A DNA stretch of 64,000 nucleotides from Verrucomicrobiota bacterium (lineage in GTDB: Bacteria; Verrucomicrobiota; Kiritimatiellia; JAAZAB01): NCBI GenBank assembly GCA_018898455.1, contig JAHIJO010000014.1, positions 1,560-65,559 of the forward strand, given 5' to 3'. Shown in pieces: positions 11,531 through 41,917 of the stretch. Position 1 is the first letter of the stretch, and every line of letters starts with the position of its first letter. The position numbers and the translations under genes were made by a program. The notes beneath the pieces were generated by a model. That model was not told the DNA's origin. It made no database searches and was given only the letters and a program-made list of their open reading frames with translations.

Positions 11531-11605
11531 GACGCTTCAGATAATATACTTATATGCCTTTTTGTCAAAAAGGGATTTCACGCGGATTAATTGCCTCCAA
11601 AGCTT

Positions 11606-17230: not shown

Positions 17231-17396
17231 CTGAGGCATTACTCTTGCTCATCAGGCAGGCTTGCTTTTACCGCCACCTTCCCCTACAATCATGAGTTCT
17301 GACATCATGGAAACAGTTTCTTATGCTGGACGGGGAATTTCTCCCTGGGGGAGGCCTTGCCTTGCCTATTCATGGCGATTTAATGAAAGAAAAAAT

Positions 17397-17963: not shown

Positions 17964-18003
17964 ATAGGTGATTATCCGGACAGCTTATCCAGGATGTTCG
18001 ATA

Positions 18004-21479: not shown

Positions 21480-23036
21480 TTGACTGTCCGTGCCATGGGA
21501 ACCGCAAATAAAATAATTCATTTCAACGAGGCGCACGCTTTCTTTGCGAAATTGCGCAAGGCGGGCAAGAAGATCGTACAATGTCACGGCACGTTTGATT
21601 TGCTGCATCCCGGCCATGTTATTCATTTTGAGGAAGCGAAGAGGCTGGGCGATGTTTTGGTGGTGACCGTCACTGGCGCCAGGCATGTCAATAAGGGGCC
21701 CGGTCGGCCGTGTTTTAACGATGAATTGCGGCTTAAATCAATCGCCGCTTTGGAATGCGTCGATTTTGTGGTTTTGATTCCATATCCGGCGGCCGTAGAA
21801 GCCATTGAGTGTGTCGGGCCTCATTTTTATTGCAAAGGCAAGGAATATGAACGTGCCGATACGGATGTTACCGGCAATTTTTACGATGACATTCAAACGG
21901 TTGAAAGCCTGGGAGGTAAAGTCTGCTATGTCGGTTCGGTCGTGTTCAGCTCAAGCAAACTGCTGAATTTGCATTTTGATACGCATAATCCAAAGATAAA
22001 AAGCTTCTGCCGGCAGGTTGCGAAAGAAATTCCTTTTCAACAATGTCGTACCATTGTGGAAGATTTTAAAAAACTTAGGGTTCTCATTATCGGTGATATC
22101 ATCTTTGACCGCTACTCAACAATGTCCGTTCAGGGCTTGACTTCAAAAAACAGGATCATTTCCGGACGGTTTGTTGGCGAAGATCTTCAGGCCGGAGGGG
22201 CTTTGGCAGTTTTGCGTCATATCCGCGAGTTCGCGCCAAAAGTCAAATTAATTAGCTTGGTAGGAACAGAACCATGGGTCGAAAGTTCTTTGCGGAATTT
22301 TATTAAGCCGGAAGAAGATAACATCCTGCGCGTAAATGATTTTACGACCATCGTCAAACAGCGTTTTGTTGAATCTCAGCAAGAAGGAAAAGAATTATCC
22401 AAATTATTTGCGGTTAATTACATTGACGCCTTACATCCCAAGGCACCGCTGCTCAAGAGGGTTCTTGAAAGGATTCGTAAGACAATTAAAACGTATGACT
22501 TGATTGTCGTGATGGATTTCGGGCATGGGTTGATGGGCGATGCGATCAGGGAAATGGTCCAGGCCAAAGCGCCTTTCCTGGCACTCAATTGCCAGACGAA
22601 CAGTAATAATCACGGATTCAATATCATCAATCGCCAATACCAGAGAGCCGACTCATTTTCACTTGATCAGACGGAAATCCGGCTGGCTTTTGGCAAGCGT
22701 GAAATCAACGGACTGCCAGAACTGGCCGATCTTCGTAAACAATTAAAAGCACAATACGGATGGTTGACCCGCGGCGATATTGAGACCATCGGAATTAAAC
22801 ATGACGGCACAACATGCGCCTGTCCTCCGCTCGAGGTCAATATCGTAGATACGGTCGGAGCCGGCGATGCGTTCAGCGCCGTCGCCTCCCTAGCCGCCGT
22901 GAGCGGGCTCCCGATCGAATTGGCGACTTTCATGGGGCAACTGGCGGGTGCCCATGCAGTCCGCATCGTCGGAAATTCTGAGGCAATAAAGAAGTCTGTA
23001 TTTCTAAAGGGCTGTGAAGCATTGTTGAATTACTGA
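21480..23036 (+). CDS. hldE: bifunctional heptose-1-P adenylyltransferase / heptose-7-P kinase (HldE-like) with reversed domain order
   Basis: The N-terminal ~160 aa form a cytidylyltransferase-like domain with CHGTFDLLHPGH (the HxGH-type nucleotidyltransferase motif of HldE domain II). The C-terminal ~330 aa form a PfkB ribokinase-like domain with DTVGAGDAF (HldE domain I). Confidence 0.75.
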   Translation: MTVRAMGTANKIIHFNEAHAFFAKLRKAGKKIVQCHGTFDLLHPGHVIHFEEAKRLGDVLVVTVTGARHVNKGPGRPCFNDELRLKSIAALECVDFVVLIPYPAAVEAIECVGPHFYCKGKEYERADTDVTGNFYDDIQTVESLGGKVCYVGSVVFSSSKLLNLHFDTHNPKIKSFCRQVAKEIPFQQCRTIVEDFKKLRVLIIGDIIFDRYSTMSVQGLTSKNRIISGRFVGEDLQAGGALAVLRHIREFAPKVKLISLVGTEPWVESSLRNFIKPEEDNILRVNDFTTIVKQRFVESQQEGKELSKLFAVNYIDALHPKAPLLKRVLERIRKTIKTYDLIVVMDFGHGLMGDAIREMVQAKAPFLALNCQTNSNNHGFNIINRQYQRADSFSLDQTEIRLAFGKREINGLPELADLRKQLKAQYGWLTRGDIETIGIKHDGTTCACPPLEVNIVDTVGAGDAFSAVASLAAVSGLPIELATFMGQLAGAHAVRIVGNSEAIKKSVFLKGCEALLNY

Positions 23037-23514: not shown

Positions 23515-23841
23515 ATGAAACATCTCGATGAAATAATACTGCATAATATGACCGATAGGTTGGTCGCTGAGTTTGACCCGGACCAGATTATTCTATTCGG
23601 TTCACACGCATGGGGTACTCCTTCTGAAGACAGCGATGTTGACTTATATGTGATCGTACCGGAGAGCAGCGAACGTCCGCTGCGGCGGGCACGACGTGCA
23701 ATTGCCTGCCTTGGGGGCATGCGGATTTCCAAGGATATTCTGGTGCGAACACGGACAGAGGCGGAAAAGTACCGGCATGTGTATGCCTCGTTGGAAAGTC
23801 AAGTTTTCGAGAAGGGGCGTGTTCTGTATGAGCGGCACTAA
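23515..23841 (+). CDS. nucleotidyltransferase (MNT) domain protein, antitoxin-type
   Basis: 108 aa ORF with the GSxxxGxxxxxSDxD motif of minimal nucleotidyltransferases (GSHAWGTPSEDSDVDL). Confidence 0.75.
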   Translation: MKHLDEIILHNMTDRLVAEFDPDQIILFGSHAWGTPSEDSDVDLYVIVPESSERPLRRARRAIACLGGMRISKDILVRTRTEAEKYRHVYASLESQVFEKGRVLYERH

Positions 23842-24235
23842 AGAAAAGCTTGCCAGAAACTGGCTTATTAAGGCCAATCGCGATCTCCTCTCGGCACGTG
23901 AATTGGCGGAGGCGGATATTCCGTTGCTGGATACTGCCGCATACCATTGTCAGCAGGCCGCTGAAAAAGCCATCAAGGCCTTTCTGCTCTTTCATGATGT
24001 TCGTTTTGAAAAAACTCATGATATCGAAGTGTTGATATTGCAGGCTATAGATATTAATCCTGATTTTAGGAGTTGCCATGAAGCAGCAAGCATTCTTACT
24101 CCGTTTGCTGTCGAGTTTCGTTACCCTGGCAACGATATGGAACCGGAAGCGGATGAGTACGGGGATGCTTTTGAAGTAGCTGCTGGTGTCTATCAGTTTG
24201 TTCTTCAGAAGCTTCCAGCGGTAGTCCATCCATAG
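23828..24235 (+). CDS. HEPN domain protein (toxin-type partner of MNT)
   Basis: ORF 23696..24235 with an internal start MSGTKEK overlapping the MNT stop by 14 nt. It is helical with an Rx4-6H-like HEPN signature region. Confidence 0.65.
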   Translation: MSGTKEKLARNWLIKANRDLLSARELAEADIPLLDTAAYHCQQAAEKAIKAFLLFHDVRFEKTHDIEVLILQAIDINPDFRSCHEAASILTPFAVEFRYPGNDMEPEADEYGDAFEVAAGVYQFVLQKLPAVVHP

Positions 24236-24374
24236 AAGATTACGGATTATCGTACTCCGGGGATCAGGGTAAAAATAATAGTAAGTGCTCACAAGCAAAA
24301 CTGTGAAATAATCGTCCGTTGGGGTCACCGGGTCTACAAAACGGCCATAGATTTGGCGGAGGAGCCATTTTGAA

Positions 24375-25325
24375 ATGCGCATTTTATTAACAGGCGGCTG
24401 CGGATATGTGGGTTCGGTGTTAACCCCGAAACTGCTTGAGCGGGGACACGAGGTAACCGTCTACGACATCATGTGGTTTGGAAATTTCCTGAAAGAGCAT
24501 CCGAATCTAACAATCATCCAGGGGGATATCAGAGACATTGACGCCGTTCCGATGGATGGCATGGATACCGTCATTCATCTCGCCAATATTGCCAACGATC
24601 CGTGCAGTGAGTTAAACCCGAAATTATCATGGGAAGTCAATGTCCTGGCCATGATGCAGCTGGTGGAGCGGGCGATAGCCTGCGGAGTCGGCCAGTTTGT
24701 TTACGCCAGTTCCGGCAGTGTTTACGGCGTTAAGGATGAACCCGAAGTGACGGAGAATCTTTCCCTGTTGCCCATTTCCGATTACAACAAAACAAAAATG
24801 ATCAGCGAGCGGGTTCTCCTGAGTTACCAGGATAAAATCATCGTTCAAATCGTTCGTCCGGCAACTATTTGCGGTTATTCCCCGAGAATGCGTCTTGACC
24901 TTTCCGTAAACATGTTGACCATGCAGGCTTTAACAAAGGGGAAGATCACCGTATTTGGCGGAAATCAAACCCGTCCTAATATTCACATTCAGGATATTAC
25001 GAATGTATTTATCCACTTTCTCGGATTGGGCGACAAAGTAACAGGCATTTACAACGCCGGCTTTGAAAACATATCCATTTTAGACATCGCCCGAATGGCC
25101 GCCGAATTTATTCCCGCCAAGATCATTGTTACGGAATCAAACGATCCGCGCTCCTACCGCCTCAATGCGGATAAATTACTGAACACCGGTTTCAGGCCAA
25201 CATTCAAAGTTGTTGATGCCATTAAGGAAATAATTGCCGCCTTCCGGACGGGCAAACTCAAAGATGAAGACGGATGCTATAATATCAGGACCATGAGGCG
25301 AATGGAAAGCAATGGGAAAATGTAA
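24375..25325 (+). CDS. NAD-dependent NDP-sugar epimerase/dehydratase (extended SDR)
   Basis: 316 aa ORF with LLTGGCGYVGS Rossmann motif and a YxxxK motif. Confidence 0.8.
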   Translation: MRILLTGGCGYVGSVLTPKLLERGHEVTVYDIMWFGNFLKEHPNLTIIQGDIRDIDAVPMDGMDTVIHLANIANDPCSELNPKLSWEVNVLAMMQLVERAIACGVGQFVYASSGSVYGVKDEPEVTENLSLLPISDYNKTKMISERVLLSYQDKIIVQIVRPATICGYSPRMRLDLSVNMLTMQALTKGKITVFGGNQTRPNIHIQDITNVFIHFLGLGDKVTGIYNAGFENISILDIARMAAEFIPAKIIVTESNDPRSYRLNADKLLNTGFRPTFKVVDAIKEIIAAFRTGKLKDEDGCYNIRTMRRMESNGKM

Positions 25326-25332
25326 TAACGTT

Positions 25333-26301
25333 ATGAATCCTGATTTGAAAAAAAAACTATTATTTAACATGCTCCGTATCCGGCTTGTGGAGGAGGCGAT
25401 TGCCGAACGCTATAGTGAGAAAAAGATGCGATGCCCTGTTCACCTTTGTATAGGACAGGAAGCCATCGCCATCGGCGTTTGCGCGCATCTATCAACAAAG
25501 GATTATGTAATGAGTGCCCATCGTTCTCATGGTCATTATCTGGCAAAAGGCGGTGATCTGAAGGCCATGCTGGCTGAAATTTATGGAAAAGTTACAGGAT
25601 GTTCCTTGGGCAGAGGCGGTTCGATGCACCTCGTTGATTTAGATGCTGGATTCCTGGGAGCTACGCCAATTGTCGGTGGTACCATCCCGATAGCTGTGGG
25701 TGCGGCATTTGGGTCCCAGATGAAAGGGGAAAGCAGAATATCCGTAGTTTTCATGGGGGAAGCCGCGACCGAAGAAGGGGTATTCAGCGAAAGTATCAAT
25801 TTTGCCTCATTGAAAAAACTTCCAGTCATTTTCGTTTGTGAAAATAATTTGTATTCTGTCTATTCCCCGTTATCCGTTCGACAATCGGCAGAAAGGAATA
25901 ATAGCGCCATTGTCAAAGGGTATGGAATTTATACCGATAAGGGTGACGGCAATGACGTTATTGAAATTTATCAAAAGATGGAAAATGCTGTTGGACATGC
26001 GCGTCAGGGCCTTGGACCGGCTTATCTGGAGTTTGATACATATCGCTGGCGGGAACACTGCGGGCCAAACTATGACAATAACATCGGCTATCGGTCGGAA
26101 GAGGAGTATTTGGATTGGCGGAAACGATGTCCCATTACATGCTTTGAAGAAATATTGAAACAGGAAAAGGTTCTTTCCGACCTGGAAGTTAAAGAAACGG
26201 TAAAGAAAATTACCGCTGAAATTGAGGGAGCTTTTAACTTCGCCGTATCCAGCCCTTTCCCTCCTGAAAAAGACCTTTACCATCATCTTTACGCCTATTG
26301 A
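25333..26301 (+). CDS. TPP-dependent dehydrogenase E1 component alpha subunit (pyruvate/acetoin dehydrogenase E1alpha-like)
   Basis: ORF 25312..26301 with the TPP-binding GDG...N fold signature and E1alpha length. Confidence 0.8.
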   Translation: MNPDLKKKLLFNMLRIRLVEEAIAERYSEKKMRCPVHLCIGQEAIAIGVCAHLSTKDYVMSAHRSHGHYLAKGGDLKAMLAEIYGKVTGCSLGRGGSMHLVDLDAGFLGATPIVGGTIPIAVGAAFGSQMKGESRISVVFMGEAATEEGVFSESINFASLKKLPVIFVCENNLYSVYSPLSVRQSAERNNSAIVKGYGIYTDKGDGNDVIEIYQKMENAVGHARQGLGPAYLEFDTYRWREHCGPNYDNNIGYRSEEEYLDWRKRCPITCFEEILKQEKVLSDLEVKETVKKITAEIEGAFNFAVSSPFPPEKDLYHHLYAY

Positions 26302-26316
26302 GTCAGATGGGTTTTT

Positions 26317-27378
26317 ATGGAACGCGAAATAAGCTACGTAAAAGCTATTTTGGAAGCAACGGCCCAGAGCATGGCCGAAGACGCATCGGTTTATATCATG
26401 GGGTTGGGCGTTCCTGACCCGAAAGGCATTTTCGGGACAACCCTTGGTCTCAAAGAGCAATTTGGAAACCAGAGAATAATGGACATGCCGGTATCAGAAA
26501 GTGCCATGACCGGCGTGGCTATCGGTTCGGCCATGGTCGGGATGCGGCCGATATTGACTCATCAGCGACTTGATTTCATACTCGTGTCCCTGGATCAAAT
26601 TATCAATAATGCGGCCAAGTGGCACTATATGTTCGGCGGAAAAATGAGCGTGCCAATCGTGATTCGCCTGATTGTTGGGCGGGGCTGGGGGCAGGGTCCT
26701 CAACATTCGCAAAGCCTGCAATCTTTATTTGCCCATATCCCGGGATTAAAAGTTGTCATGCCTTTCACCCCTTATGACGCCAAGGGGTTGCTCGTTTCCG
26801 CCATTAGGGATAATAATCCGGTTATCTATATTGAACATCGCTGGCTTCACAATATTACAGGTATTGTTCCGGAAAAGATCTACACCGTACCCTTGGGGAA
26901 GGCCAGGGTCGTAAAAGAAGGAAAAGATATCACCATTGCGGCGTCATCATACATGGTTTTAGAATCCATGAAAGCGGCGGATTATTTAGGTAAAGATGGC
27001 ATCTTCGCCGAAGTGCTTGATCTGCGCACGTTACAACCTCTTGACCGGGAAAGCATCATTAATTCCGTAGAAAAGACCGGCCGCCTCCTCGTTGTTGATG
27101 GCGCCTGCCATACCGCCGGCTTTGCTGCGGAAGTTATGGCCACAGCAACAGAAAAAGCCTTCGGTCATCTAAAGGTATCGCCCCAAAGAATAACTTACCC
27201 GGACCTGCCGACGCCGACCAGCCCGGCCCTGGCGAATGTGTATTATCCTCGTGTTATCAACATCATCAATGCCGTCCGGTCTATGTTCAGACTTCCGGGA
27301 AGAACGGAAGATGAATTAGGCATAAAGCATGATCAGCCTTTGGACGTGCCGGACAAGTCGTTCACGGGACCTTTCTGA
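26317..27378 (+). CDS. TPP-dependent dehydrogenase E1 component beta subunit (transketolase-like pyrimidine-binding + C-terminal domain)
   Basis: 353 aa ORF with E1beta architecture, immediately downstream of the E1alpha gene. Confidence 0.8.
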   Translation: MEREISYVKAILEATAQSMAEDASVYIMGLGVPDPKGIFGTTLGLKEQFGNQRIMDMPVSESAMTGVAIGSAMVGMRPILTHQRLDFILVSLDQIINNAAKWHYMFGGKMSVPIVIRLIVGRGWGQGPQHSQSLQSLFAHIPGLKVVMPFTPYDAKGLLVSAIRDNNPVIYIEHRWLHNITGIVPEKIYTVPLGKARVVKEGKDITIAASSYMVLESMKAADYLGKDGIFAEVLDLRTLQPLDRESIINSVEKTGRLLVVDGACHTAGFAAEVMATATEKAFGHLKVSPQRITYPDLPTPTSPALANVYYPRVINIINAVRSMFRLPGRTEDELGIKHDQPLDVPDKSFTGPF

Positions 27379-27502
27379 TAAACGCGACGAAATGATTAGA
27401 ACCCATAACACAAATTAATTTTTAAAAAACATACTGCGAGATATTTGCCGGGAAGGGAAATATAAATGGAAACAATCGACAGCACATGATGTAGAAAAAG
27501 GC

Positions 27503-28597
27503 TTGATTCTGGATGGAACAAAAATTCAATGGCACACAGACCGGGTAAAAGCATGGATGAACGGAGAAAGAATTGCTCCGATTACAGTTGATATGGCATT
27601 GACAAGGGCTTGCAATTATAAATGCGAGTTCTATTATGGAAAGCTTCAAGAGAATCCGAGAATGAAAATAACCAAAGATACAATTTACCGTTTTCTTGAC
27701 GATGCAGCTGAGATTGGAGTAAAGGGGGTTAGTTTTGTAAGTGACGGAGAAAGTTCATGTGCCCCATTTTTTGTTGAAGCAATTATCAGAGGTAGCAAAA
27801 ATGGTTTGTCAATGGCTATGGCTTCGAATGGGCACCTGGTTACCAAAGAGAAACTGGAGCAAATACTTCTACATTTAACATATTTTCGCTTCAACATATC
27901 AGCGGGAGAATCGCGAAGATACGCTGATATTATGGGGGTTCCAGAATCATATATTTTCACAGTTTGCCAAAACATTCAAGATGCGATGGAGATTAAAAAC
28001 AAATACAATCTTAACGTAACTATTGGCATGCAAATGGTTCTTATGCCGCGGTATGGCGATCAAATTCTTCCGCTTGCAAAGCTAGGCTCAAAACTAAAGC
28101 CCGATTATCTTGTTATAAAACACACTTCTGACGATGAAAAGGGAAGCCTTGGCGTGAATTATAAAGGATATCGCGAATTATACAAAGACCTCAAAAAAGC
28201 TGAATCATTAAGCACGGATAAATATATTGTAAAAGTAAAATGGTCGAAAATTCAAGATGAAGGAAAAAGAAGATATAGCCAATGCTACGGCCCTCCTTTT
28301 TTAATACAACTATCAGGCGGTGGATTGGTTGCCCCCTGCGGAATGTTATTTGGCGAAGATTATCGTAAATATTGGATTGGCAATATAGTTGACCAGCCTT
28401 TCAAGGCAATTTGGAATTCCGAACGTTATTGGTCAGTAATGCATGAGATAGCTTCAAATAGATTTAATGCAAGAACAATGTGCGGATGTTTATGCGTTCA
28501 ACACAAATCAAATGAATTCCTTTGGGATTTGAAACAAGGGAAGGCAACCATGGGGCATCCCGTCGGGTCAGCGCCGATGCATATCAACTTTGTATAG
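27503..28597 (+). CDS. SPASM/twitch-type radical SAM-like protein with noncanonical CX3CX2Y motif
   Basis: ITVDMALTRACNYKCEFYYG aligns to the rSAM CNLxCxYC cluster, but the third Cys is Tyr. A GNIVDQPFKAIWNSERY block is typical of SPASM-domain enzymes. No in-frame ATG exists before M at 27557 (otherwise TTG 27503). Confidence 0.6.
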   Translation: MILDGTKIQWHTDRVKAWMNGERIAPITVDMALTRACNYKCEFYYGKLQENPRMKITKDTIYRFLDDAAEIGVKGVSFVSDGESSCAPFFVEAIIRGSKNGLSMAMASNGHLVTKEKLEQILLHLTYFRFNISAGESRRYADIMGVPESYIFTVCQNIQDAMEIKNKYNLNVTIGMQMVLMPRYGDQILPLAKLGSKLKPDYLVIKHTSDDEKGSLGVNYKGYRELYKDLKKAESLSTDKYIVKVKWSKIQDEGKRRYSQCYGPPFLIQLSGGGLVAPCGMLFGEDYRKYWIGNIVDQPFKAIWNSERYWSVMHEIASNRFNARTMCGCLCVQHKSNEFLWDLKQGKATMGHPVGSAPMHINFV

Positions 28598-28687
28598 CCT
28601 GAAGCAGGATTGCCCAGAGGGTTTTCCTGTAATCTGACCATGCCGTTCTAATCCAATAAAACAAACGGGAAGGTTTGATCTGCACGT

Positions 28688-29968
28688 ATGCCAGTCAAGA
28701 AGTTGATTAATTCACCGATCTTCTATTTTATACGGGGATATTTTACCGGAGATAATGTGGCTTACTATCTGCCGGCAAAATATCTCTGGACGGTTTGCAA
28801 TGTAACCAAAACCGGATTTCACCAACCGGTCTATGATTTTAAGCTGGATGGCCCGATCACGTTGGATTTCATGTTTTATCCGGAACAGCCACAACACAAG
28901 TATTTTAAAAAACCGGACTGGATCAACGAGTTCATTGTAGCTGGTGACACGGTCGCAGCACAACAGATCGCTGGACACTATGACTATTGCATCAATAATT
29001 ATCGCAATCGTGGCGCACAACCGGCCGAATTGAACTGGGGATATCCACCCGGCATGCAAGCGATCGAGCTATATGCTTACCCCTATTCCTATAAAGCTAT
29101 TTACGAACAGAGCATTTATCTTGACGACCTGTTTCTGACTGATGAATACCAGGAATATTTACAGTCGGTAAACCAGGCAGTCAATCCGGATCGGCGCCCG
29201 GTAATCGCCTTGCATCACCGCGGCGGCGATCGTTGGAAACGCCATCTGCCGAACAGCGCCGCTCTTTCCGAAGTATTATTGCGCAATTTACTGGACGCCT
29301 ATCCGGAACATCAGATCGTGCTGCTGGGTGAATCCTGGCGCTATCATCGTCACCCAAGGATCAAATACCTTGAAGATTCCATCAATCTCCGCAATCTGAA
29401 AAAGCGATTCGAGGATTATTCGGCTTGTTTGCAATTTATCCTGGCTGCTTATTTTTGCCGCGATGCCGATATGGTATTTTGCGGCATATCCGGTTTTAGC
29501 GCTTTCATCGAAAGCATTCGTCCGTTGGATAAAACACCGCCGATCCCGATTTTCTGGGGACCAAAGACTTTTACCGGCACCTGTACCTTCATGAAAAAGA
29601 TGAACTGGAATTGCTGCGCCGAATTGGCCGATTACCGCAAAGCTCACCCCGAAGACGCAGCGTTTCTGCACGATACCCCGAATTTTCTTTATTACAATCG
29701 GAATGAAGTCCTGCTAAAGCCCTATTGTCTGGATTATCCTAATAACTTGGACAAAATATTTACCCTCCTGAAACAAATATCGGAAGTGAAGGAATATAAA
29801 ATTGAGATTCGCACTCTACAGCAGGGGTTTAGTGAACGGTTGATTACTTATTTCTGGCATTTCAAGTCGTATGTAAGGCTATTAAAGCGTTTATGTCAGA
29901 TTATATTTTTAGAAAAAGCGGGGTGGGGACGGATTATGCTAATCGTAAAAGAGTTAATGACGAAGTGA
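28688..29968 (+). CDS. putative GT-B glycosyltransferase, GT9 (heptosyltransferase)-like C-terminal half
   Basis: The segment IVLLGESW...NLRNLKKRFEDYSACLQFILAAYFCRDADMVFCGISGFSAFIE...IPIFWGPK matches the GT9 C-terminal pattern (vvl.G...nl.G.t.l.e.aal...a.l.ig.DSG..H.a.a....lfGp). Confidence 0.4.
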   Translation: MPVKKLINSPIFYFIRGYFTGDNVAYYLPAKYLWTVCNVTKTGFHQPVYDFKLDGPITLDFMFYPEQPQHKYFKKPDWINEFIVAGDTVAAQQIAGHYDYCINNYRNRGAQPAELNWGYPPGMQAIELYAYPYSYKAIYEQSIYLDDLFLTDEYQEYLQSVNQAVNPDRRPVIALHHRGGDRWKRHLPNSAALSEVLLRNLLDAYPEHQIVLLGESWRYHRHPRIKYLEDSINLRNLKKRFEDYSACLQFILAAYFCRDADMVFCGISGFSAFIESIRPLDKTPPIPIFWGPKTFTGTCTFMKKMNWNCCAELADYRKAHPEDAAFLHDTPNFLYYNRNEVLLKPYCLDYPNNLDKIFTLLKQISEVKEYKIEIRTLQQGFSERLITYFWHFKSYVRLLKRLCQIIFLEKAGWGRIMLIVKELMTK

Positions 29969-30058
29969 ATATAATATTTACTCTCGCTATGCGGACGCAA
30001 GCTGAGCGACGGCAATTCCGTTTCCACTATTTTCCAATGAGGACGAAAGCGACGCTTA

Positions 30059-31795
30059 ATGAATTTTCTTTTTGTTAACCCAAAAGTGGCCGCACGTGGG
30101 CAGTATTATGATTTCCCTCTTGGCCTGGCGTATGTTTCCGCTTACATGAAACATTCGGGGTTCGCCACATACTGCCTTAACCTATGTCACGATGACAGCC
30201 CCATTGAGAGGCAGTTGCTTAATGCGATCACAAGTAACAACATAAATGTTGTGTGCACGGGCGGCATGTCGGTTAACTTCAATGCCATCAAAGAGGTCGT
30301 TCAGGCGGCCAGAAAGGTAAGTCCGGATATCAAGATTGTTGTCGGCGGAGCGGTTGTAACGGCGGATCCCGCTTTGGCAGCCGAGCTTTTGCAGTTTGAT
30401 TATGGGGTTGTCGGTGAAGGCGAAATCACTATGGCGGAATTGGCCGGTGTGCTAACCGGCAACGGAGATGCTTCACAAGTTGCAGGTCTGATCTATCGCG
30501 ATGGGCAGGGGAATTCCCGCGTGCCCGTGATAGAACGTCTGGATCGTTACATTACCACGGGGCAACGTCAGCCGATCATGGACTTGGATTCACTCCCCTT
30601 CCCGGATTGCGCGGGGCTTGGCTATGTCGAATATTTAAAGACTTTCGCGCCCAATTGCTCGAACAATATGTTTACCATCAATGACGCTCCGCGTGCTGCG
30701 TTTGTGATTGCCTCGCGATCATGCCCGTTCGACTGCACCTTCTGTTACCATCCGCTCGGAAGGAAATATCGGCAGCGGAGTCTCGACAGTGTCATGGCGG
30801 AAATCGATCACATGAAGCGGAAGTATGACATCAATGTTCTGGTACTGATGGATGAGTTGTTTTCCACTTCCATTGAACGGCTTCTCCTGTTCTGTAAAAG
30901 AGTAAAGGATTATCACCTCCAGTGGATGGTGCAACTCAGGGTTTCAGACGTGACCGAAGAAGTCCTTCGCGCCATGAAAGAATCAGGAGTGTATGCGGTC
31001 AGTTACGGCGTGGAGAGCATGAGCGACGACATTCTTAAGAGTATGAATAAGAAAACAACTTCAACCCAAATTGAAAAAGCCTTGAGTATGACACGTTCAC
31101 TAGGCATTGGCGTATTCGCGAATCTGATCTTTGGCGACCCGGAAGAAACGGATTTAACGGTGAAAAAGTCACTAGACTGGTGGTTTGCCCATATTGAGTA
31201 TGGCGTCACGCTGTATATGATCAGGGTTGTTCCAGATTCGCCCATCTATAGATATGCGCTGGAAAGCGGCATTATCAAGGATAAGGCAAAGTTTATGAAG
31301 GATGGTTTTCCGATCATAAACATAAGCAAACTCTCGCCCTCCGCCTTTACTCGTCTCTGTCATCTCATAGACTGGTATACCTTTGCGAAAATTCCAGGTC
31401 AACCGGGGCAGGTCATGCAATCATCCGTGATAGGCTGGGACACCTTTAACCGGCGTATATATTCAGTTGATATCCTGTGTCCTCAATGTAATGCCCGGAC
31501 TACTTATACTAATCTAGCGCAGATGGACTACTTTGGTTTTAGGGGTTACCTTCAAGTGTTTTGCCGGAATTGTCACCACCGCGTGAATGTGTCGCCCAAG
31601 CAAGTGTTTGGTGAAAACTACAAGTTGAGAAATAATTCAATCTTCAGGTTCATCGCGGTGAATTCCATAGATATGCTTTTCCGGTCACGTATTATTTTTA
31701 CTATTTTGAACATTATTCGCCTCCAGTTCTTTGATATCCGTCGCTTGCACAGGCTTTTCCGGAAACTGGCGGTGTCCCGTCCTGCAGAAACATGA
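30059..31795 (+). CDS. B12-binding domain radical SAM protein (class B rSAM) #1
   Basis: It has an N-terminal cobalamin-binding-like domain, then CPFDCTFC (a CX3CX2C motif). Confidence 0.8.
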   Translation: MNFLFVNPKVAARGQYYDFPLGLAYVSAYMKHSGFATYCLNLCHDDSPIERQLLNAITSNNINVVCTGGMSVNFNAIKEVVQAARKVSPDIKIVVGGAVVTADPALAAELLQFDYGVVGEGEITMAELAGVLTGNGDASQVAGLIYRDGQGNSRVPVIERLDRYITTGQRQPIMDLDSLPFPDCAGLGYVEYLKTFAPNCSNNMFTINDAPRAAFVIASRSCPFDCTFCYHPLGRKYRQRSLDSVMAEIDHMKRKYDINVLVLMDELFSTSIERLLLFCKRVKDYHLQWMVQLRVSDVTEEVLRAMKESGVYAVSYGVESMSDDILKSMNKKTTSTQIEKALSMTRSLGIGVFANLIFGDPEETDLTVKKSLDWWFAHIEYGVTLYMIRVVPDSPIYRYALESGIIKDKAKFMKDGFPIINISKLSPSAFTRLCHLIDWYTFAKIPGQPGQVMQSSVIGWDTFNRRIYSVDILCPQCNARTTYTNLAQMDYFGFRGYLQVFCRNCHHRVNVSPKQVFGENYKLRNNSIFRFIAVNSIDMLFRSRIIFTILNIIRLQFFDIRRLHRLFRKLAVSRPAET

Positions 31796-32008
31796 CAGGG
31801 ACGGCCAAAGAGATCGGGCGTCGTGAAATAACAGCACAATCACGACCGATAATCCATAGATATTGATTGCATCATACCGTGCCAGCGCCTGTTCCATATC
31901 GCCGCGTTACGGCTTTGATGCTTTGCATTCCCACATCTTAACCATTTTTACCTTTCTGCTTGCCTCCAAGCCCCTGCCTTGCCACAATTATGGTCTCGAA
32001 CGCATCTT

Positions 32009-33547
32009 ATGAATACGCAGGACAAGGCATTACGGATTCTCTTTGTTAACCCGCCACTTTCAATAGTGCGCGGGCATTTGTGCACCATGCTTAAGTTCCC
32101 CCTCGGCTTTCTCTATCTCGCCACACCCTTGGAGCGGGATGGGTTCGACGTCAAGATCCTCGATGCCCCGCTATATTACCGGACGACCACCACGGTGGAT
32201 GACAATACGGTCCGCATCGGAATGACGTTTGAACAAATCGCCGAAGAGATCCGGAGCTATGCGCCCCAGATCGTCGGCGTCAGTTGCGCCTATACCATGA
32301 GCGAAGCCGATTCGTTTGCCGTGATTGATTATATCAAGCAAAGGTTCCCATCGGTCCTGCTGGTGGTGGGTGGAGCGCATACTTCGGCGAATCCCGGCTA
32401 TGTTTTGAGGAATCGCAATATTGACTTGGCGGTGATCGGCGAGGGCGAATTGACCATGCTGGAAATTGCGCGGCAATTCCGGTCCGGCAAGTCGCTCCAG
32501 GATATCCCGGGCACAGCCCTTGTCATTGAGGGACAGGTGCGGATCAACGAACGCCGCGAATACATGGCCGACCTGGATGAGTATGGCGCGAGCTGGCACC
32601 TGCTCGATATGGCGCAATATTTCGCGCATCCCAACAATGCCGACGCCACCCTGCGGCGCAATGCGGTGGACTTGGTCACCAGCCGCGGATGTCCGGGAAA
32701 GTGTGTCTTTTGCTCCATTCATACGGTCTGGGGACGCAAGTGGCGGGCCCGTTCGCCCAAAAACGTGGTGGACGAAATGGAGTTGCTTTGCCGCCAATAC
32801 GGCGCGCGGCAATTCCGCATCCAGGACGACAATCTGACCCTGGATAAGCGGCGGATTATAGAAATATGCGATGAAATCGTCCGCCGCAAGCTTGATATCC
32901 GCTGGGACACGCCGAACGGCATCGCATTGTGGACGTTGAACGAGGATGTTCTGAAGAAAATGAAGCAGGCCGGCTGTTACCGCGTGACATTCGGTATCGA
33001 GTCCGCATGTTCCCGTACCCAGCAATACATCGGCAAGATTGTCAATCTCCAGCGGATCAGGGATATTGTAAATTACTGTCACCGCATTGGCTTATGGATC
33101 TGCGGCACTTTTATCATCGGGTTTCCCGATGAGACCCGTGATGAAATTCGGGAAACTGAGCAGTTTATCGTAAAATCACGGTTTAATTTTCCCTTCATCT
33201 ATGTAGCGCAACCGATGCAGGGGACACGGCTGTACGAGGATTTCAAGGCCCACAACCTTCTGCCTGACGAATTCCGTCCCATGAGTTCCGTTGATCAGAC
33301 GCGCTATGACACCCTGCACTTCAATCAGTCTGAATTGAATGACATGGTGCGCAATATTTACATGAGGTTTTACAGGCATAAAGCTCTGTCCTATTTGAAT
33401 CCCCTGCGGTGTTACCGCGAATTCCTTTCGAAAATAAGATCCCGGGAAGACCTGAATTATGTACTGCGCATGGCCGTGGCAATCTGGTATCCTCTCCGGT
33501 TGAAAAAGTTTGCCAAAAAACATGCTGTTGACCAGGTTGGGGAATGA
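32009..33547 (+). CDS. B12-binding domain radical SAM protein (class B rSAM) #2
   Basis: ORF 31979..33547 with an ILFVNPP N-terminal B12-like domain and a CPGKCVFC motif. Confidence 0.8.
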   Translation: MNTQDKALRILFVNPPLSIVRGHLCTMLKFPLGFLYLATPLERDGFDVKILDAPLYYRTTTTVDDNTVRIGMTFEQIAEEIRSYAPQIVGVSCAYTMSEADSFAVIDYIKQRFPSVLLVVGGAHTSANPGYVLRNRNIDLAVIGEGELTMLEIARQFRSGKSLQDIPGTALVIEGQVRINERREYMADLDEYGASWHLLDMAQYFAHPNNADATLRRNAVDLVTSRGCPGKCVFCSIHTVWGRKWRARSPKNVVDEMELLCRQYGARQFRIQDDNLTLDKRRIIEICDEIVRRKLDIRWDTPNGIALWTLNEDVLKKMKQAGCYRVTFGIESACSRTQQYIGKIVNLQRIRDIVNYCHRIGLWICGTFIIGFPDETRDEIRETEQFIVKSRFNFPFIYVAQPMQGTRLYEDFKAHNLLPDEFRPMSSVDQTRYDTLHFNQSELNDMVRNIYMRFYRHKALSYLNPLRCYREFLSKIRSREDLNYVLRMAVAIWYPLRLKKFAKKHAVDQVGE

Positions 33548-33742: not shown

Positions 33743-34126
33743 ATGGAATACAAGGAATTAACGGAAAAGATAATTGGTTGCGCCATGAAAGTGCATCAGG
33801 CGCTCGGTCCGGGGTTCCTGGAATCAGTCTATCAGAAAGCGTTAGCTCATGAACTCTGTAAGGCGGGTCTTGCCTTCGAATGTGAAAAGGCCATCCAAGT
33901 TCTCTATGACAGCGTGATCGTTGGCGACTTTTCTGCCGACATGCTGGTTGAAGGCACTGTCATGGTGGAAAATAAATCAGTCCAATCCCTCGTCGCGGCC
34001 CACGAAGTGCAATTAGTGAACTACCTGACCGCCACCGGCATTGAAGTGGGTCTCTTGCTGAACTTTGGCGCAGCCAGTTTGGAAATCAAACGCAAGACCC
34101 GTACCTACCGTCCAAAATCGCCTTAA
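33743..34126 (+). CDS. GxxExxY protein (PD-(D/E)XK-like)
   Basis: 127 aa ORF with GPGFLESVY motif. Confidence 0.75.
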   Translation: MEYKELTEKIIGCAMKVHQALGPGFLESVYQKALAHELCKAGLAFECEKAIQVLYDSVIVGDFSADMLVEGTVMVENKSVQSLVAAHEVQLVNYLTATGIEVGLLLNFGAASLEIKRKTRTYRPKSP

Positions 34127-34198: not shown

Positions 34199-34879
34199 AT
34201 GAATCTGCTGCGTATGATCAAGCGAGTGATACTTAAAAGCGGATTCCCTCCGTCTAAACGAGTGGACTTTTGTAACGCGCTCTTATCTCTCGGGCAATGG
34301 CTGAAAGCAAATCCAGCGCCCATCCATTTGGAAAGCAGGGAAAAACTGTATGAATACGTTGCCGGCAAGATGAATGGGGAGCCGTTTGACTACATTGAAG
34401 CCGGCGTTTTTCGCGGCGACTCAATTCGATATTGGGCCCAACTATCAAGTTGCCCGGGATCGCGATTCTTTGGATTCGATACATTTACCGGCCTTCCCGA
34501 AGCCTGGCATGCCGGTCTTACTACGTTCAAGATTGGTCATTTCGACGCTGGGGGCGCCTTGCCGCTGACCCAAGATGAACGCGTTCGTTTTATCAAAGGC
34601 CGCTTCCAGGATACGGTTCCGGATTTCCTCCGTACCTATTGTCGCCCGAAGAACTTAATAATTCATTGTGACGCGGATCTCTATACCTCAACGCTATACT
34701 TCCTGGCGTCCTTCCATAACGTTATGACCGCTGGAACCTACCTGCTGTTCGACAATTTCTCGGTTGCCCCCCACGACTTTCGAGCGTTTTCTGACTATAC
34801 CCAGTCGTTCTGCCGCGCCTATGACGTCGTGGCGACCGCGGAAGTCGACTTCGAAAAAATTGCGTTTCTCTTGAAGTAG
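34199..34879 (+). CDS. TylF/MycF-family SAM-dependent O-methyltransferase (macrocin-O-methyltransferase-like)
   Basis: EAGVFRGDS...FGFDTFTG...HCDADLY blocks resemble the TylF family. Confidence 0.6.
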   Translation: MNLLRMIKRVILKSGFPPSKRVDFCNALLSLGQWLKANPAPIHLESREKLYEYVAGKMNGEPFDYIEAGVFRGDSIRYWAQLSSCPGSRFFGFDTFTGLPEAWHAGLTTFKIGHFDAGGALPLTQDERVRFIKGRFQDTVPDFLRTYCRPKNLIIHCDADLYTSTLYFLASFHNVMTAGTYLLFDNFSVAPHDFRAFSDYTQSFCRAYDVVATAEVDFEKIAFLLK

Positions 34880-34952: not shown

Positions 34953-35180
34953 ATGACCACAGCTACGATCAATATGAAACTTGACGCGGACACGGCCAGT
35001 ATCTTTACGGAGGCGCCGGCAGAGGACCGCAATAAACTCTGTGTTCTGTGGAGCGTGTTATTGCGGGAATATAAGTCGGCCCCCATGCCGTTAAGCAAGC
35101 TCATGGATCAGATCGGCGCCAGGGCAAAGGCACGCGGGCTGACTACCGATAAACTGGAATCCATTCTCGATGCCGACTAA
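34953..35180 (+). CDS. small antitoxin-like protein (possible VapB-type partner)
   Basis: 75 aa ORF overlapping the downstream PIN-like ORF by 11 nt. Family uncertain. Confidence 0.3.
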   Translation: MTTATINMKLDADTASIFTEAPAEDRNKLCVLWSVLLREYKSAPMPLSKLMDQIGARAKARGLTTDKLESILDAD

Positions 35181-35385
35181 ACAGCTAACCAAAGCCGTTG
35201 CAGACTGTCGCGATCCGAAAGACAACATGTATCTTGAGCTTGCCAATGAGGCACGGGCTTCATGTATCATCACGGGTGACAAGGACTTGCTCGATCTCCA
35301 TCCGTATCGAGGCATTGCCATTCTGACTCCCAAGCAGTTCTTCGATGGTTCCCCAGAATCCGATGTTGCAGGTTATTTCCACTGA
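35170..35385 (+). pseudogene. PIN-domain toxin C-terminal fragment (TIGR00305-like), N-terminal catalytic Asp region absent
   Basis: CRDPKDNMYLELANEARASCIITGDKDLL matches the C-terminal half of the PIN-family TA toxin. Only 71 aa remain, against ~130 aa for a full domain. Confidence 0.4.
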
Positions 35386-36331: not shown

Positions 36332-36709
36332 ATGTCCCGCGAGGCATTTTACGTTTACATGATGACCAACAAGGGACAGACGACGCTGTATATCGGAGTC
36401 ACGAACAGCCTGGTGCGTCGGGTGCATCAGCATCGATCGGGTGACGTGTCCGGGTTCACGGAACGATACAACCTGAATCGTCTTGTGTACTACGAGCAGT
36501 ACAACGATCCGCGGGATGCGATTGCGCGAGAGAAGCAGCTGAAGCGTTGGCGCAGAGAGAAGAAGGAGGCCCTGATCGGAAAGATGAATCCGACGTGGGC
36601 GGATTTGGCCGAGAGTGTGCTCGGCCTCGGGTCGGCACCCGCGCCGGGGTGGAAGAGAACGGAGATCCCTCGACAAGCTCGGGATGACGGATGTGGAAGC
36701 TCGGGATGA
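36332..36709 (+). CDS. GIY-YIG nuclease family protein (UPF0213-like) with short repeat-encoded C-terminal tail
   Basis: FYVYMMTN...TLYIGVTNSLVRRVHQH matches the GIY-YIG motif. The 3' end spans a 16-bp direct repeat AAGCTCGGGATGACGG x2 (36675-36690 and 36697-36712). Confidence 0.8.
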   Translation: MSREAFYVYMMTNKGQTTLYIGVTNSLVRRVHQHRSGDVSGFTERYNLNRLVYYEQYNDPRDAIAREKQLKRWRREKKEALIGKMNPTWADLAESVLGLGSAPAPGWKRTEIPRQARDDGCGSSG

Positions 36710-39797: not shown

Positions 39798-40802
39798 TTA
39801 TCCGGGCTTTGCCGCCGCCACGCTGGGTTCATAAAAAATAATTTGGCTGCCCAGCGATTCGAATTCAAAGGGCACATGGAGCAATGGCGCCATCTGCCGG
39901 CGGAAATGAACCTGCTTGTCCGGCGGCACAAAGAACAGCATGAATCCGCCGCCGCCGGCGCCCAGTAGTTTGCCGCCGATCGCGCCCGCGGCCAGACCCC
40001 TGGCATAGATATCGTCCAAGTAGGCGTTCGATATTTTTGCGCTGAGGGAGCGCTTGATTTCCCAGCCTTCGTGCAAGAGCCGGCCAAAATCACCGATATC
40101 GCCGCTGCCAATGATTTTCATGGCCTCATCCACCATGGCTTGGATGGCCTGCAGTTCCTTTTCCATTTTCGGTGTGTTCCGGATCTGGTCGGCGGCAATT
40201 TCGGAAGCGTTCCGGGAGAAGCCGGTAAAATACAGCAATAGATGGTTTTGCAGTAAATGGATGCGATCGAGCGGCAGGGTTACGGGATGGATTGTTATCC
40301 GGTCGCCCGGTGAAAACCGGATCACGTTCAGTCCGCCGAAGGCGGCAGTCACCTGGTCCTGGGCCCCCACATTCTCGCCGATAAGGTCCCGCTCGACATG
40401 AATCGCTTCCTGGGCCAGTTGCATCCGGGTGCACATTTCACCGCGCATCCCATGCAGGGCGTGTAAAAGCCCCACCGTGAACGAGGAACTGGATCCCAAT
40501 CCCGCCCGGGCCGGCAGGTCGCTGTCATTATGGATCTCAACGCCATCGGTTATTCGCATGAATTGCAGGCCTTTTCGTACGGCCGGGTGCTTGATGTCCT
40601 CAATGGTTCGGACGTCCTCAACCATCGAATACACAATGCGAAACTTGTGTTCGAAGAACGGCGGCAGGTAACGGCAATTGATATAACAGTAGCGATTGAT
40701 ACTGGTGGCGAGCACGGCGCCGCCATGTTCATTGTACCAGACCGGGTAATCCGTGCCTCCGCCAAAAAACGAGATGCGAAAAGGTGTGCGGCTGATGATC
40801 AT
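39798..40802 (-). CDS. hddA: GHMP-family sugar kinase, D-glycero-D-manno-heptose 7-phosphate kinase (HddA)-like
   Basis: The N-terminus RISFFGGGTDYP and the GHMP motif PARAGLGSSSSF have the architecture of GDP-heptose-pathway HddA kinases. Confidence 0.7.
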   Translation of the reverse strand: MIISRTPFRISFFGGGTDYPVWYNEHGGAVLATSINRYCYINCRYLPPFFEHKFRIVYSMVEDVRTIEDIKHPAVRKGLQFMRITDGVEIHNDSDLPARAGLGSSSSFTVGLLHALHGMRGEMCTRMQLAQEAIHVERDLIGENVGAQDQVTAAFGGLNVIRFSPGDRITIHPVTLPLDRIHLLQNHLLLYFTGFSRNASEIAADQIRNTPKMEKELQAIQAMVDEAMKIIGSGDIGDFGRLLHEGWEIKRSLSAKISNAYLDDIYARGLAAGAIGGKLLGAGGGGFMLFFVPPDKQVHFRRQMAPLLHVPFEFESLGSQIIFYEPSVAAAKPG

Positions 40803-40836
40803 GATCCTTCTCCGTGTTGTGAAATTGAGCGGAATC

Positions 40837-40922
40837 TTGCCCGCGAACTACGCAAAAGGAATGCGAAATGATTACATAAAAAAACGGATTTATTCGCGTC
40901 TCATTCGCGTAATTCGCGGTTA
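40837..40922. repeat. CGCGAA-family intergenic repeat copy (TTGCCCGCGAACTACGCAAAAGGAATGCGAAATGATTAC ... TTCGCG x3)
   Basis: Read directly, similar to 38400-38440. Confidence 0.6.
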
Positions 40923-40951
40923 ATATGTTTTATTGTGGTCAATGGCGGAAT

Positions 40952-41893
40952 TTATGAGTGAATCTTGTTGTTGCGATACAGGAGATACCATTTCACGGTT
41001 TTTTCAATGCCCTGTTTAAGCGTATATTTCGGTTTCCAGTTAGTTTTTGCAATAAAGCGTTTGTTGTCAAGCACTTTGTGTTTTACGCCGGTGTATCTGT
41101 CTTTATTAAAAAACAGATTTCCCCGATAACCGACCGCATCGCGGATGATCTCGGCAACTTCCCGAATCGGATATCCTTTTCCATTGCTTATATTTACAAT
41201 CTCATTTTCAAAATGTTCCGCGGCCAGCAGCATCGCGTCGATTTGATCGTCGACATAAAGCAATTCCCGGATTTGCGTTCCATCGCCCCATATCTCAACC
41301 TGCGGCTCATGCTGCTCCTTGGCCTTGATAAACTTGATAATTAGCGCCGCCATGACATGGGTACGGATCGGATCGCCAAAGTAGTCGTCGGGACCAAACG
41401 GGGTCGCATAAATCACATGCACGTACTTTAAATTGTATTGTAAACTATATGCCCGCAATCCTACATCCGCCATGCGCTTGGTATTGGCATAATAAAACAC
41501 CGATTCATCAACCGGTCCCTGATGAAAGTCCGGCTCATACAACAGGCTCATGCTGGCCGGGTACGCGCAGCTGGTTCCGACAAAGATGAGTTTTGCCTGC
41601 GGCTGATACCGGCGCCAGGCCTCCATCGTGTTCGTGTGAATCTGTCCATTGTCATGGACGAGTGACGCGGCCATGCCTTTCTGAAATTCGGGAGCTCCGC
41701 CGCCTTGAATTGCAGCCATGTGGATGATCCGGTCGAATTTATCGAGGGTCCGGAAAAAGGCGAATGTCTGTTCTTCGTTACGCAAGTCGCATTCCCGGCT
41801 ATGGAAGACCCGATAACGGATCGCGCGGTCCGTAAGGATTCGGGCAAGGTTTTTCCCGATAAAACCGGTGCCGCCGGTGATTAATATGTTCAT
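40952..41893 (-). CDS. NAD-dependent epimerase/reductase (extended SDR; GDP-sugar 3,5-epimerase/4-reductase-like)
   Basis: 313 aa ORF. ILITGGTGFIGKNL Rossmann motif and YxxxK (YYANTK) motif. Confidence 0.75.
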   Translation of the reverse strand: MNILITGGTGFIGKNLARILTDRAIRYRVFHSRECDLRNEEQTFAFFRTLDKFDRIIHMAAIQGGGAPEFQKGMAASLVHDNGQIHTNTMEAWRRYQPQAKLIFVGTSCAYPASMSLLYEPDFHQGPVDESVFYYANTKRMADVGLRAYSLQYNLKYVHVIYATPFGPDDYFGDPIRTHVMAALIIKFIKAKEQHEPQVEIWGDGTQIRELLYVDDQIDAMLLAAEHFENEIVNISNGKGYPIREVAEIIRDAVGYRGNLFFNKDRYTGVKHKVLDNKRFIAKTNWKPKYTLKQGIEKTVKWYLLYRNNKIHS

Positions 41894-41917
41894 TCAAGAC
41901 TCCTGATTGCCGTGTGT

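Follow-up and report, generated by a model that had tools for sequence, protein, structure and literature searches.

Most of the cobalamin-type (class-B) radical S-adenosylmethionine (SAM) enzymes that have been characterised are C-methylases, among them the sugar methylases GenK, GenD1, Fms7 and MoeK5 (PMC9204698, PMC12931638). Class-B enzymes acting on carbohydrates are already known as a kind, but from a handful of antibiotic pathways and not from ordinary surface glycans or archaeal N-glycosylation. Other relatives differ in substrate or chemistry. HpnJ, a hopanoid-associated class-B enzyme, has been proposed to contract the ring of a glucosamine, added by the adjacent family 2 glycosyltransferase (GT2) HpnI, to a cyclitol ether (PMC13459092, PMC9204698). 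AprD4 is a radical SAM 1,2-diol dehydratase of paromamine, MgmA (QCMT) is the glutamine C-methyltransferase of methyl-coenzyme M reductase (MCR), and Sden_1168 and PhpK are class-B P-methyltransferases. Here we analyse a stretch of 64,000 nucleotides (the window) of contig JAHIJO010000014.1 from a Verrucomicrobiota bacterium of the Kiritimatiellia, in which a glycan locus contains three genes of this class, called A, B and C:

30059-31795, plus strand: class-B radical SAM enzyme A, 578 amino acids
32009-33547, plus strand: class-B radical SAM enzyme B, 512 amino acids
36754-38214, minus strand: class-B-type radical SAM enzyme C, most likely 486 amino acids from Met7

It seems somewhat probable to us that these three separate enzymes tailor the sugars of one cell-surface glycan, A and B by C-methylation and C by methylation or rearrangement. 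That class-B enzymes tailor a glycan here is well supported; cobalamin use, substrate and reaction type are what we infer. By analogy with characterised enzymes, C-methylation would most likely be the chemistry of A and B, and for C the balance between methylation and a non-methylating radical rearrangement or elimination of the sugar is roughly even.

The three open reading frames (ORFs) exist as an earlier sequence-only reading of this DNA had described them, and all three enzymes combine a B12-binding-like Rossmann domain with a radical SAM core. The coordinates given there for A and B stood. For C, whose ORF reaches 38232, the most likely start is instead Met7, at window position 38214, which fits the family alignment and the NCBI record. 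The ORF of B opens at a TTG (31979), but in independent gene calls on metagenomes the start is the ATG at 32009. In Pfam, A scores 74.2 bits for B12-binding (PF02310) and 75.8 bits for Radical_SAM (PF04055), B 70.0 and 82.4 bits, and C 72.4 bits for Radical_SAM; E-values of about 1e-20 per domain leave no room for chance matches. The class-B architecture of C is confirmed by an AlphaFold2 model (19-sequence alignment; pLDDT 84.7, pTM 0.86), which has a Rossmann N-terminal domain and in Foldseek aligns over its full length with AprD4, TsrM, MgmA, OxsB, TokK and CysS (TM-score 0.6-0.7). It should be noted that a B12-like fold alone is no proof of cobalamin use, since AprD4 has the fold and does not use cobalamin. 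The cluster motifs are CPFDCTFC in A and CPGKCVFC in B, both CX3CX2C, and CWHGKCTFC in C, i.e., CX4CX2C. Pairwise identity among the three is only 22-25%, so they are separate lineages and not duplicates of one another. Identical copies of A and C were found on metagenome contigs only, and an NCBI protein attributed to a metagenome-assembled Kiritimatiellae genome matches C at 100% identity.

The atypical spacing in C, already noticed from the sequence, is real and a family hallmark rather than a local oddity, since C-W-[WHY]-G-[KR]-C-x-F-C is carried by all 120 of the closest homologues. Family C is large (more than 4,600 homologues at E <= 1e-10) and highly conserved: each of the top 120 has an identity of 60% or more, the few of them with a named source being mostly DPANN archaea, and an alignment of 19 sequences from Kiritimatiellae to Pacearchaeota (A1) has a mean column identity of 74%. 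When one genome per species was scanned, at least 590 of these genomes had an orthologue (48-91% identity). Among them are Kiritimatiellae, Lentisphaerae, Verrucomicrobiota, Woese-, Pace-, Nano-, Aenigm- and Micrarchaeota, Bathyarchaeia and Archaeoglobus, and also Dehalococcoidia, anaerobic Actinomycetota, Latescibacterota, Desulfosudaceae, Spirochaetia and Saccharibacteria.

The neighbourhood of C is that of a glycan pathway throughout. Genes within six of C were clustered in 73 loci, and the neighbour types were GT2 (63 loci), another class-B enzyme (27), Glycos_transf_4 (25), the flippase-like LPG_synthase_TM (25), an unknown protein of ca. 393 amino acids (22), STT3/AglB (19), Wzx (17), Phosphodiest (15), class I methyltransferases (13), polysaccharide deacetylase (12) and PMT_2 (8). 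Directly upstream of C orthologues, Pfam identified a GT2 in 44 of 67 cases, and a family 4 glycosyltransferase (GT4) and a PMT_2 in two each. In Pacearchaeota, the order is STT3, Glycos_transf_4, (LPG_synthase_TM), GT2 and then C; in Kiritimatiellae, the partner adjoining C is a GT4, accompanied by FkbM, a GHMP kinase and short-chain dehydrogenases/reductases (SDRs). Both partners are present in the window. Its GT4 is found 54-86% identical and adjoining C in six related loci (L017, L018, L020, L009, L016 and L100), and its GT2 (11591-12634) is 58% identical to the GT2 of L016, with 40 of its 55 BLAST matches among C-orthologue neighbours being the gene at position -1. In the DPANN N-glycosylation clusters (L014, L015; ca. 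22 of the 73 loci), a protein of ca. 390-430 amino acids without a family and a Phosphodiest (PF01663) protein follow C.

We consider it possible, though on the unlikely side, that family C, usually with its dedicated GT2 directly upstream, carries out an undescribed radical modification, either C-methylation or conversion to a carbocyclic or contracted form, of a sugar linked to a lipid or a nucleotide, which would then enter glycans, the products being, with the same reserve, N-glycans of DPANN and other archaea (through AglB/STT3) and surface glycans of the Planctomycetes-Verrucomicrobia-Chlamydiae (PVC) group and many anaerobic bacteria. A distant example comes from a cultured organism, the pathogen Lawsonia intracellularis, whose 27-kb plasmid 1 (NC_008012.1, 10157-23437; L098) bears a cluster of glycan type. 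It includes a class-B-like radical SAM gene (motif CPFKCFFC, 28% identity to C) and another radical SAM gene, as well as GT2s, GalE, a SIS protein and five class I methyltransferases.

Family A has at least 717 homologues at E <= 1e-10, the closest being 40-50% identical and coming from Brocadiaceae, Planctomycetes and Omnitrophica, and it keeps the canonical CX3CX2C motif. A C-terminal pair of CxxC motifs is present in 116 of the 120 top homologues; in A it spans residues 474-505 (window 31478-31573, CPQC ... CRNC), and its four Cys columns are invariant in the family alignment (A3). Judging from the motif, the pair may form a zinc ribbon or bind an auxiliary cluster. A orthologues of 41-44% identity are located in glycan loci of Brocadiaceae and Planctomycetes. 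The Brocadiaceae contig contains three class-B enzymes, a split transketolase/E1-like thiamine pyrophosphate (TPP) enzyme, a GHMP kinase, epimerases and a GT2, and the Planctomycetes contig three class-B enzymes in tandem, a YerE-like TPP enzyme, GT11, GT2, GT4s and an initiating sugar transferase. A pattern scan of metagenomes for A was too generic and returned mostly distant class-B paralogues, with seven new A orthologues usable; the neighbours in these seven loci include class-B and SPASM radical SAM enzymes, Wzx, GT2, FkbM, class I methyltransferases, DegT, a TPP enzyme and Bac_transf.

Family B (1808 homologues) has orthologues 55-63% identical in Pacearchaeota, Nanoarchaeota, Verrucomicrobia and one genome labelled Paceibacterota. 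Their contexts, archaeal and bacterial alike, are again glycan loci, with GT2, GT4, GT9, PMT_2, Wzx, Glycos_transf_4, SPASM enzymes and more class-B paralogues. Several members (P0331, P0333 and P0357, ca. 705 amino acids) are fused to a C-terminal class I methyltransferase domain, which we count as evidence for methylation. One such fusion gene (L101:9001-11121) adjoins a PMT_2 glycosyltransferase. E1 or other TPP enzymes recur beside A and B orthologues. In a close PVC relative (GCA_018823155.1, L100:7873-11699), the B orthologue (62% identity) lies between E1 alpha and E1 beta genes, in a locus where class-B radical SAM genes number four and there are two pairs of E1 alpha/beta, and in our window A and B follow closely after the E1 alpha/beta genes. 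Such repeated association suggests an action of B on, or next to, a two-carbon branch installed by the TPP enzyme.

The mechanism that we propose is modelled on the characterised class-B enzymes GenK, Fom3, TokK and MgmA. The reduced cluster would split SAM to give a 5'-deoxyadenosyl radical, which would abstract hydrogen from an unactivated C-H of the sugar; a methyl group would then pass from methylcobalamin to the sugar radical, and a second SAM would regenerate methylcobalamin. For A and B, which belong to one plus-strand gene run directly downstream of E1 alpha/beta, the most likely reaction would be C-methylation of a branched or amino(deoxy) sugar that is linked to a nucleotide or a lipid. 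C would pair with a glycosyltransferase (here the GT4 that diverges from it, plus the conserved GT2 at 11591) and modify the sugar handled by that enzyme, by a chemistry that could be methylation or an HpnJ-like rearrangement. The best functional analogy is the radical methylation of unactivated sugar carbons by GenK, GenD1, Fms7 and MoeK5 (PMC9204698). These aminoglycoside and moenomycin C-methyltransferases share with A, B and C the class-B architecture, a carbohydrate substrate or context, and the company of sugar-nucleotide enzymes and glycosyltransferases; a carbohydrate-pathway context was found for all three families, in the window as well as in the related loci. However, they belong to actinomycete antibiotic pathways, whereas A, B and C are located in surface-glycan or N-glycosylation loci of PVC bacteria, DPANN archaea and other anaerobes. 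The number of different class-B paralogues per locus (three to five) favours multiple tailoring steps over a single rearrangement. Heavily methylated glycans have been described in anammox bacteria, a lineage that carries family A. The S-layer O-glycan of Kuenenia, the only glycan from such a lineage to have been studied well, has up to five methyl groups on six sugars, including a 174-Da "dimethyl-deoxyhexose," the methyl positions being assumed and not determined. The anammox S-layer glycan papers that report heavy methylation name no responsible genes, and later preprints on anammox glycoproteomics and nucleotide sugars neither resolve the methyl positions nor name radical SAM genes.

Several observations weigh against tailoring by C-methylation. 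Families A, B and C are without any characterised member, and none of the three proteins reaches the cutoff of an NCBIfam family, be it HpnJ, BchE, PhpK, Sden_1168, the RiPP (ribosomally synthesised and post-translationally modified peptide) methylases, AprD4 or KedN5, so no function can be transferred to them. C scores 29.9 bits for B12-binding, just below the gathering score of PF02310 (32.1 bits). Its closest named relatives, HpnJ (32% identity) and BchE, are non-methylating. AprD4, the top structural match for C and the top match by sequence among solved structures for A, is a cobalamin-independent sugar dehydratase. An Rfam scan of the window detected no family, cobalamin riboswitch included, and no other B12 marker was seen there. 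In the searchable literature, we found no C-methyl sugar from these lineages. The sequence-only reading had made methylases of all three and counted up to five methylation events together with the two conventional methyltransferases of the locus; this goes too far, since none belongs to a characterised methylase family and AprD4 is among the closest structures.

The best NCBIfam matches are as follows:

A: PhpK subfamily, 139.4 bits (cutoff 600), followed by the ladderane-type model (131), HpnJ (110.2) and BchE (110.2)
B: Sden_1168, 220.4 bits (cutoff 575), followed by BchE (180.5) and HpnJ (168.3)
C: HpnJ (TIGR03471), 171.9 bits (cutoff 577.6), followed by BchE (133.8)

The comparison with non-methylating class-B enzymes that the sequence-only reading had proposed is therefore ambiguous, with all scores far below the cutoffs. 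The BchE model (TIGR02026) has a cutoff of 481 bits, and no bacteriochlorophyll context was seen for the three genes. Scores for other models were likewise far below the cutoffs: 80-168 bits for ApyD (cutoff 750), 61-126 bits for the MgmA-type TIGR04014 (cutoff 360), and, for A, B and C respectively, 64.4, 71.6 and 38.6 bits for AprD4 (NF033070, cutoff 500), 63, 62 and 31 bits for the C-methylase KedN5 (cutoff 700) and 63.2, 70.8 and 52.5 bits for B12_rSAM_oligo (TIGR04295, cutoff 400). Among solved structures, the closest by sequence are AprD4, MgmA and TsrM for A, MgmA for B (PDB 9CCB, E = 1e-20), and MgmA (E = 2e-7) and AprD4 for C. AprD4 (PDB 6FD2) is also the best structural match to the C model (TM-score 0.68-0.73), at an identity of only 15%. 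These matches do not discriminate between chemistries, since the top ones mix the methylases TsrM, MgmA, TokK and CysS with the ring-contracting OxsB and the dehydratase AprD4.

It is to C that the alternative of a non-methylating enzyme applies best. C, and possibly A or B, would then catalyse a radical rearrangement or elimination, either a ring contraction like that of HpnJ or OxsB, giving a carbocyclic or contracted pseudo-sugar on a lipid-linked sugar provided by the partner GT2, or a 1,2-diol dehydration like that of AprD4, giving a deoxy sugar. We take this to be unlikely, but the most serious of the rivals. HpnJ is not only the best NCBIfam match of C but also its best annotated match in a plasmid collection (32% identity over 77%), and the hpn order, hpnI (GT2), hpnJ, hpnK and an LPG_synthase_TM protein, is paralleled at the Pfam level by the C-orthologue loci with their upstream GT2, LPG_synthase_TM and polysaccharide deacetylase (44/67, 25/73 and 12/73). 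The sub-threshold B12-binding score of C and the structural match to AprD4, an enzyme with a sugar substrate and a B12-like N-terminal domain, point the same way. However, the score of C is less than a third of the HpnJ cutoff, HpnJ has the canonical CX3CX2C motif and not CX4CX2C, and its chemistry is itself proposed rather than demonstrated. Neighbouring class-B paralogues match HpnJ as well as C does, or better (188 versus 144 bits), which makes the resemblance a general one in this region of the superfamily. An orthology of the genomic context was considered and down-weighted: the parallel holds at the Pfam level only, HpnI, HpnK and HpnL had no BLAST match among the neighbours of C orthologues, i.e., the partners are not detectably orthologous, and in the window neither an hpnI-hpnJ-hpnK arrangement nor hopanoid genes were seen.

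A second alternative keeps the class-B chemistry and changes the target, which would be a lipid or glycolipid (the polyprenol carrier, a lipid A-like molecule or the head group of a membrane lipid), with the glycosyltransferases making the glycolipid. The 131 bits of A come from a model for B12 radical SAM enzymes of ladderane lipids, and family A is common in Brocadiaceae; the GT4 is weakly similar to a synthase of N-acetylglucosaminyl-phosphatidylglycerol, and the LPG_synthase_TM neighbours resemble the glucosaminyl-phosphatidylglycerol flippase and HpnL. Many class-B enzymes modify lipids (PMC13459092). We find this quite improbable nonetheless, as the ladderane and other scores are all far below their cutoffs and the loci contain full sugar-nucleotide pathways, Wzx flippases, initiating transferases and the archaeal AglB/STT3, which argues for the assembly of an oligo- or polysaccharide. 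DPANN archaea, which are among the carriers, mostly lack lipid synthesis, which would be another point against a lipid target.

Even less credible is P-methylation in the manner of PhpK or Sden_1168 by at least one of the three enzymes, decorating the glycan with a phosphinate or phosphonate. PhpK and Sden_1168 do give the top curated models for A and B, and genes of the Phosphodiest family are present in 15 of the 73 family C loci. Yet both scores are under half of the cutoffs, no phosphonate pathway genes, and specifically no phosphoenolpyruvate mutase or phosphonopyruvate decarboxylase, were seen among the scanned ORFs of the window, and the physiological substrate of Sden_1168 is itself unknown (PMC9204698).

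Finally, the three could be RiPP- or protein-tailoring enzymes (of the PoyC, MgmA or rSAM_ocin_1 type) that lie in a glycan locus by chance, which we regard as the most improbable of all these explanations. MgmA, a protein glutamine C-methylase, is the solved structure closest by sequence to B and C, and like them it is compact (ca. 450 amino acids); its substrate is a protein, however, and the window has no MCR context. The RiPP methylase model TIGR03975 gives 84-110 bits for the three enzymes, well under its cutoff of 282. A precursor-peptide gene, the finding that the sequence-only reading had named as fatal to its proposal, did not turn up: small ORFs with conservation were absent between the genes and next to them, the gap between A and B included (a 31-codon call in L009 is not conserved), and neither the window nor the related loci showed a RiPP peptidase. 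ABC-type exporters are present in L010 and L011, as is usual for glycan loci, and the glycan context holds over dozens of phyla. The RiPP explanation was accordingly rejected.

We thus return to sugar tailoring and to the glycan locus of the window, which spans ca. 35 kb (ca. 11.6-46.8 kb) and is low in GC. Scans of the window ORFs against Pfam and NCBIfam bore out its description as a glycan locus with sugar-nucleotide enzymes, aminotransferases, GT2, GT4, a Wzx-like flippase and two conventional SAM methyltransferases, the TylF-like and FkbM ones, both of which are confirmed. Besides A, B and C, the following genes lie in the locus or, for the last one, beside it:

11591-12634, plus strand: GT2 glycosyltransferase (Pfam GT2), homologous to the GT2 directly preceding C orthologues elsewhere
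17262-17963, plus strand: SIS-domain protein, weakly GmhA-like sugar-phosphate isomerase
17968-19017, plus strand: nucleoside diphosphate-sugar 4,6-dehydratase-like SDR (dTDP-glucose 4,6-dehydratase model, 191 bits, below cutoff)
19024-20172 and 20165-21364, plus strand: two DegT/PseC-like sugar aminotransferases
21480-23036, plus strand: HldE-like nucleotidyltransferase-PfkB kinase fusion, well under the HldE cutoff
24375-25325, plus strand: SDR epimerase/reductase
25312-26301 and 26317-27378, plus strand: pyruvate-dehydrogenase-type E1 alpha and E1 beta, TPP enzymes
27503-28597, plus strand: radical SAM/SPASM-like protein with the degenerate motif CNYKCEFY (Pfam Radical_SAM 37 bits, SPASM 29 bits)
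28688-29968, plus strand: 426-amino-acid protein without known family, soluble, with no transmembrane segments by hydropathy
34199-34879, plus strand: TylF-like methyltransferase (Methyltransf_24), adjoining A and B also in L009
35419-36195, plus strand: FkbM-family methyltransferase, accompanying C and the GT4 in L009, L016 and L100
38560-39789, plus strand: GT4 glycosyltransferase, divergent from C
39798-40802, 40952-41893 and 41918-42634, minus strand: HddA-like GHMP sugar kinase, Fcl-like SDR and short SDR-like protein
43208-44470, minus strand: Wzx-like flippase with 10 predicted transmembrane segments, its BLAST homologues being the Polysacc_synt cluster
45823-46758, minus strand: SDR epimerase at the end of the locus, 63-74% identical to epimerases of L010 and L016
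46859-49141, plus strand: DUF2961/GH172-family protein flanking the locus

The HldE-like protein, in which the domain order is reversed (nucleotidyltransferase N-terminal, PfkB kinase C-terminal), hints, together with the SIS protein and the HddA-like kinase, at a heptose-type or other unusual activated sugar. The E1 alpha/beta pair is the likely donor of a two-carbon branch. In the SPASM-like protein, a Tyr takes the place of the third Cys of the cluster motif; the motif reads alike in four metagenome contigs that are independent of one another, which excludes a sequencing error. This protein weakly matches the "pseudo-SAM/SPASM" model TIGR04347 and, going by its sequence, may be inactive or a non-canonical member of the radical SAM proteins. 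The related glycan loci L014, L099 and L101 also contain SPASM radical SAM genes. The 426-amino-acid protein, which has no Pfam or NCBIfam match, is kept between the SPASM-like gene and A on all contigs bearing A; its segment HHRGGDRW may resemble motif I of the fucosyltransferase superfamily of glycosyltransferases. The Wzx-like flippase has no Pfam match of its own.

The arrangement A-B-TylF-FkbM-C-GT4-GHMP is conserved in L009 at 77-85% identity, and the module of GHMP kinase, Fcl-like SDR and short SDR (39798-42634) in L009, L010, L016 and L100. A DUF2961/GH172 protein flanks the related L016 locus as well, which indicates a conserved chromosomal insertion point of the glycan cluster. GC content drops to 0.43-0.48 between 24 and 32 kb (24001-32000), compared with 0.55-0.60 in the flanks, which suggests horizontal acquisition of the region from E1 to A. 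L009, with A, B and C, does not have the upstream segment from DegT through E1 to SPASM. Small toxin-antitoxin, PDDEXK_3 and GIY-YIG genes are scattered through the locus at 23515-24235, 33743-34126, 34953-35385 and 36332-36709, where they encode pairs of the NTP_transf_2/HEPN and PIN_3 types and single proteins of the PDDEXK_3 and GIY-YIG types. These selfish or defence-type genes are recent insertions, since the close relative L009 does not have them. Low GC and interspersed small genes of this kind are typical of exchangeable surface-polysaccharide loci.

In the searchable literature, there was no paper tying cobalamin-type radical SAM enzymes to the biosynthesis of O-antigen, capsule, S-layer or archaeal N-glycans. 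As far as we can see, no description exists of the families themselves, the motif variant of C, the breadth over two domains of life or the regular occurrence in primary surface-glycan and AglB clusters. A, B and C represent three large families found consistently in glycan loci of organisms without a cultured representative, from DPANN archaea and Kiritimatiellae to anammox Planctomycetes and Dehalococcoidia, suggesting that the sugars of cell surfaces undergo a radical modification that is widespread and so far undescribed. Family C, highly conserved and well defined, is a suitable target for a first biochemical characterisation, and Lawsonia intracellularis could serve as a tractable model. 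If C-methylation or rearrangement is true, surface glycans would hold types of sugars that glycoproteomics misreads, e.g., by taking each +14 Da for an O-methyl group, and envelope synthesis would be B12 dependent, which would be important for symbionts with tiny genomes. Were the proposal for family C and its GT2 to hold, there would be an unrecognised class of monosaccharides in the envelopes of much of the uncultured anaerobic world, with A and B contributing further steps of radical tailoring, tied to the two-carbon branching by TPP enzymes.

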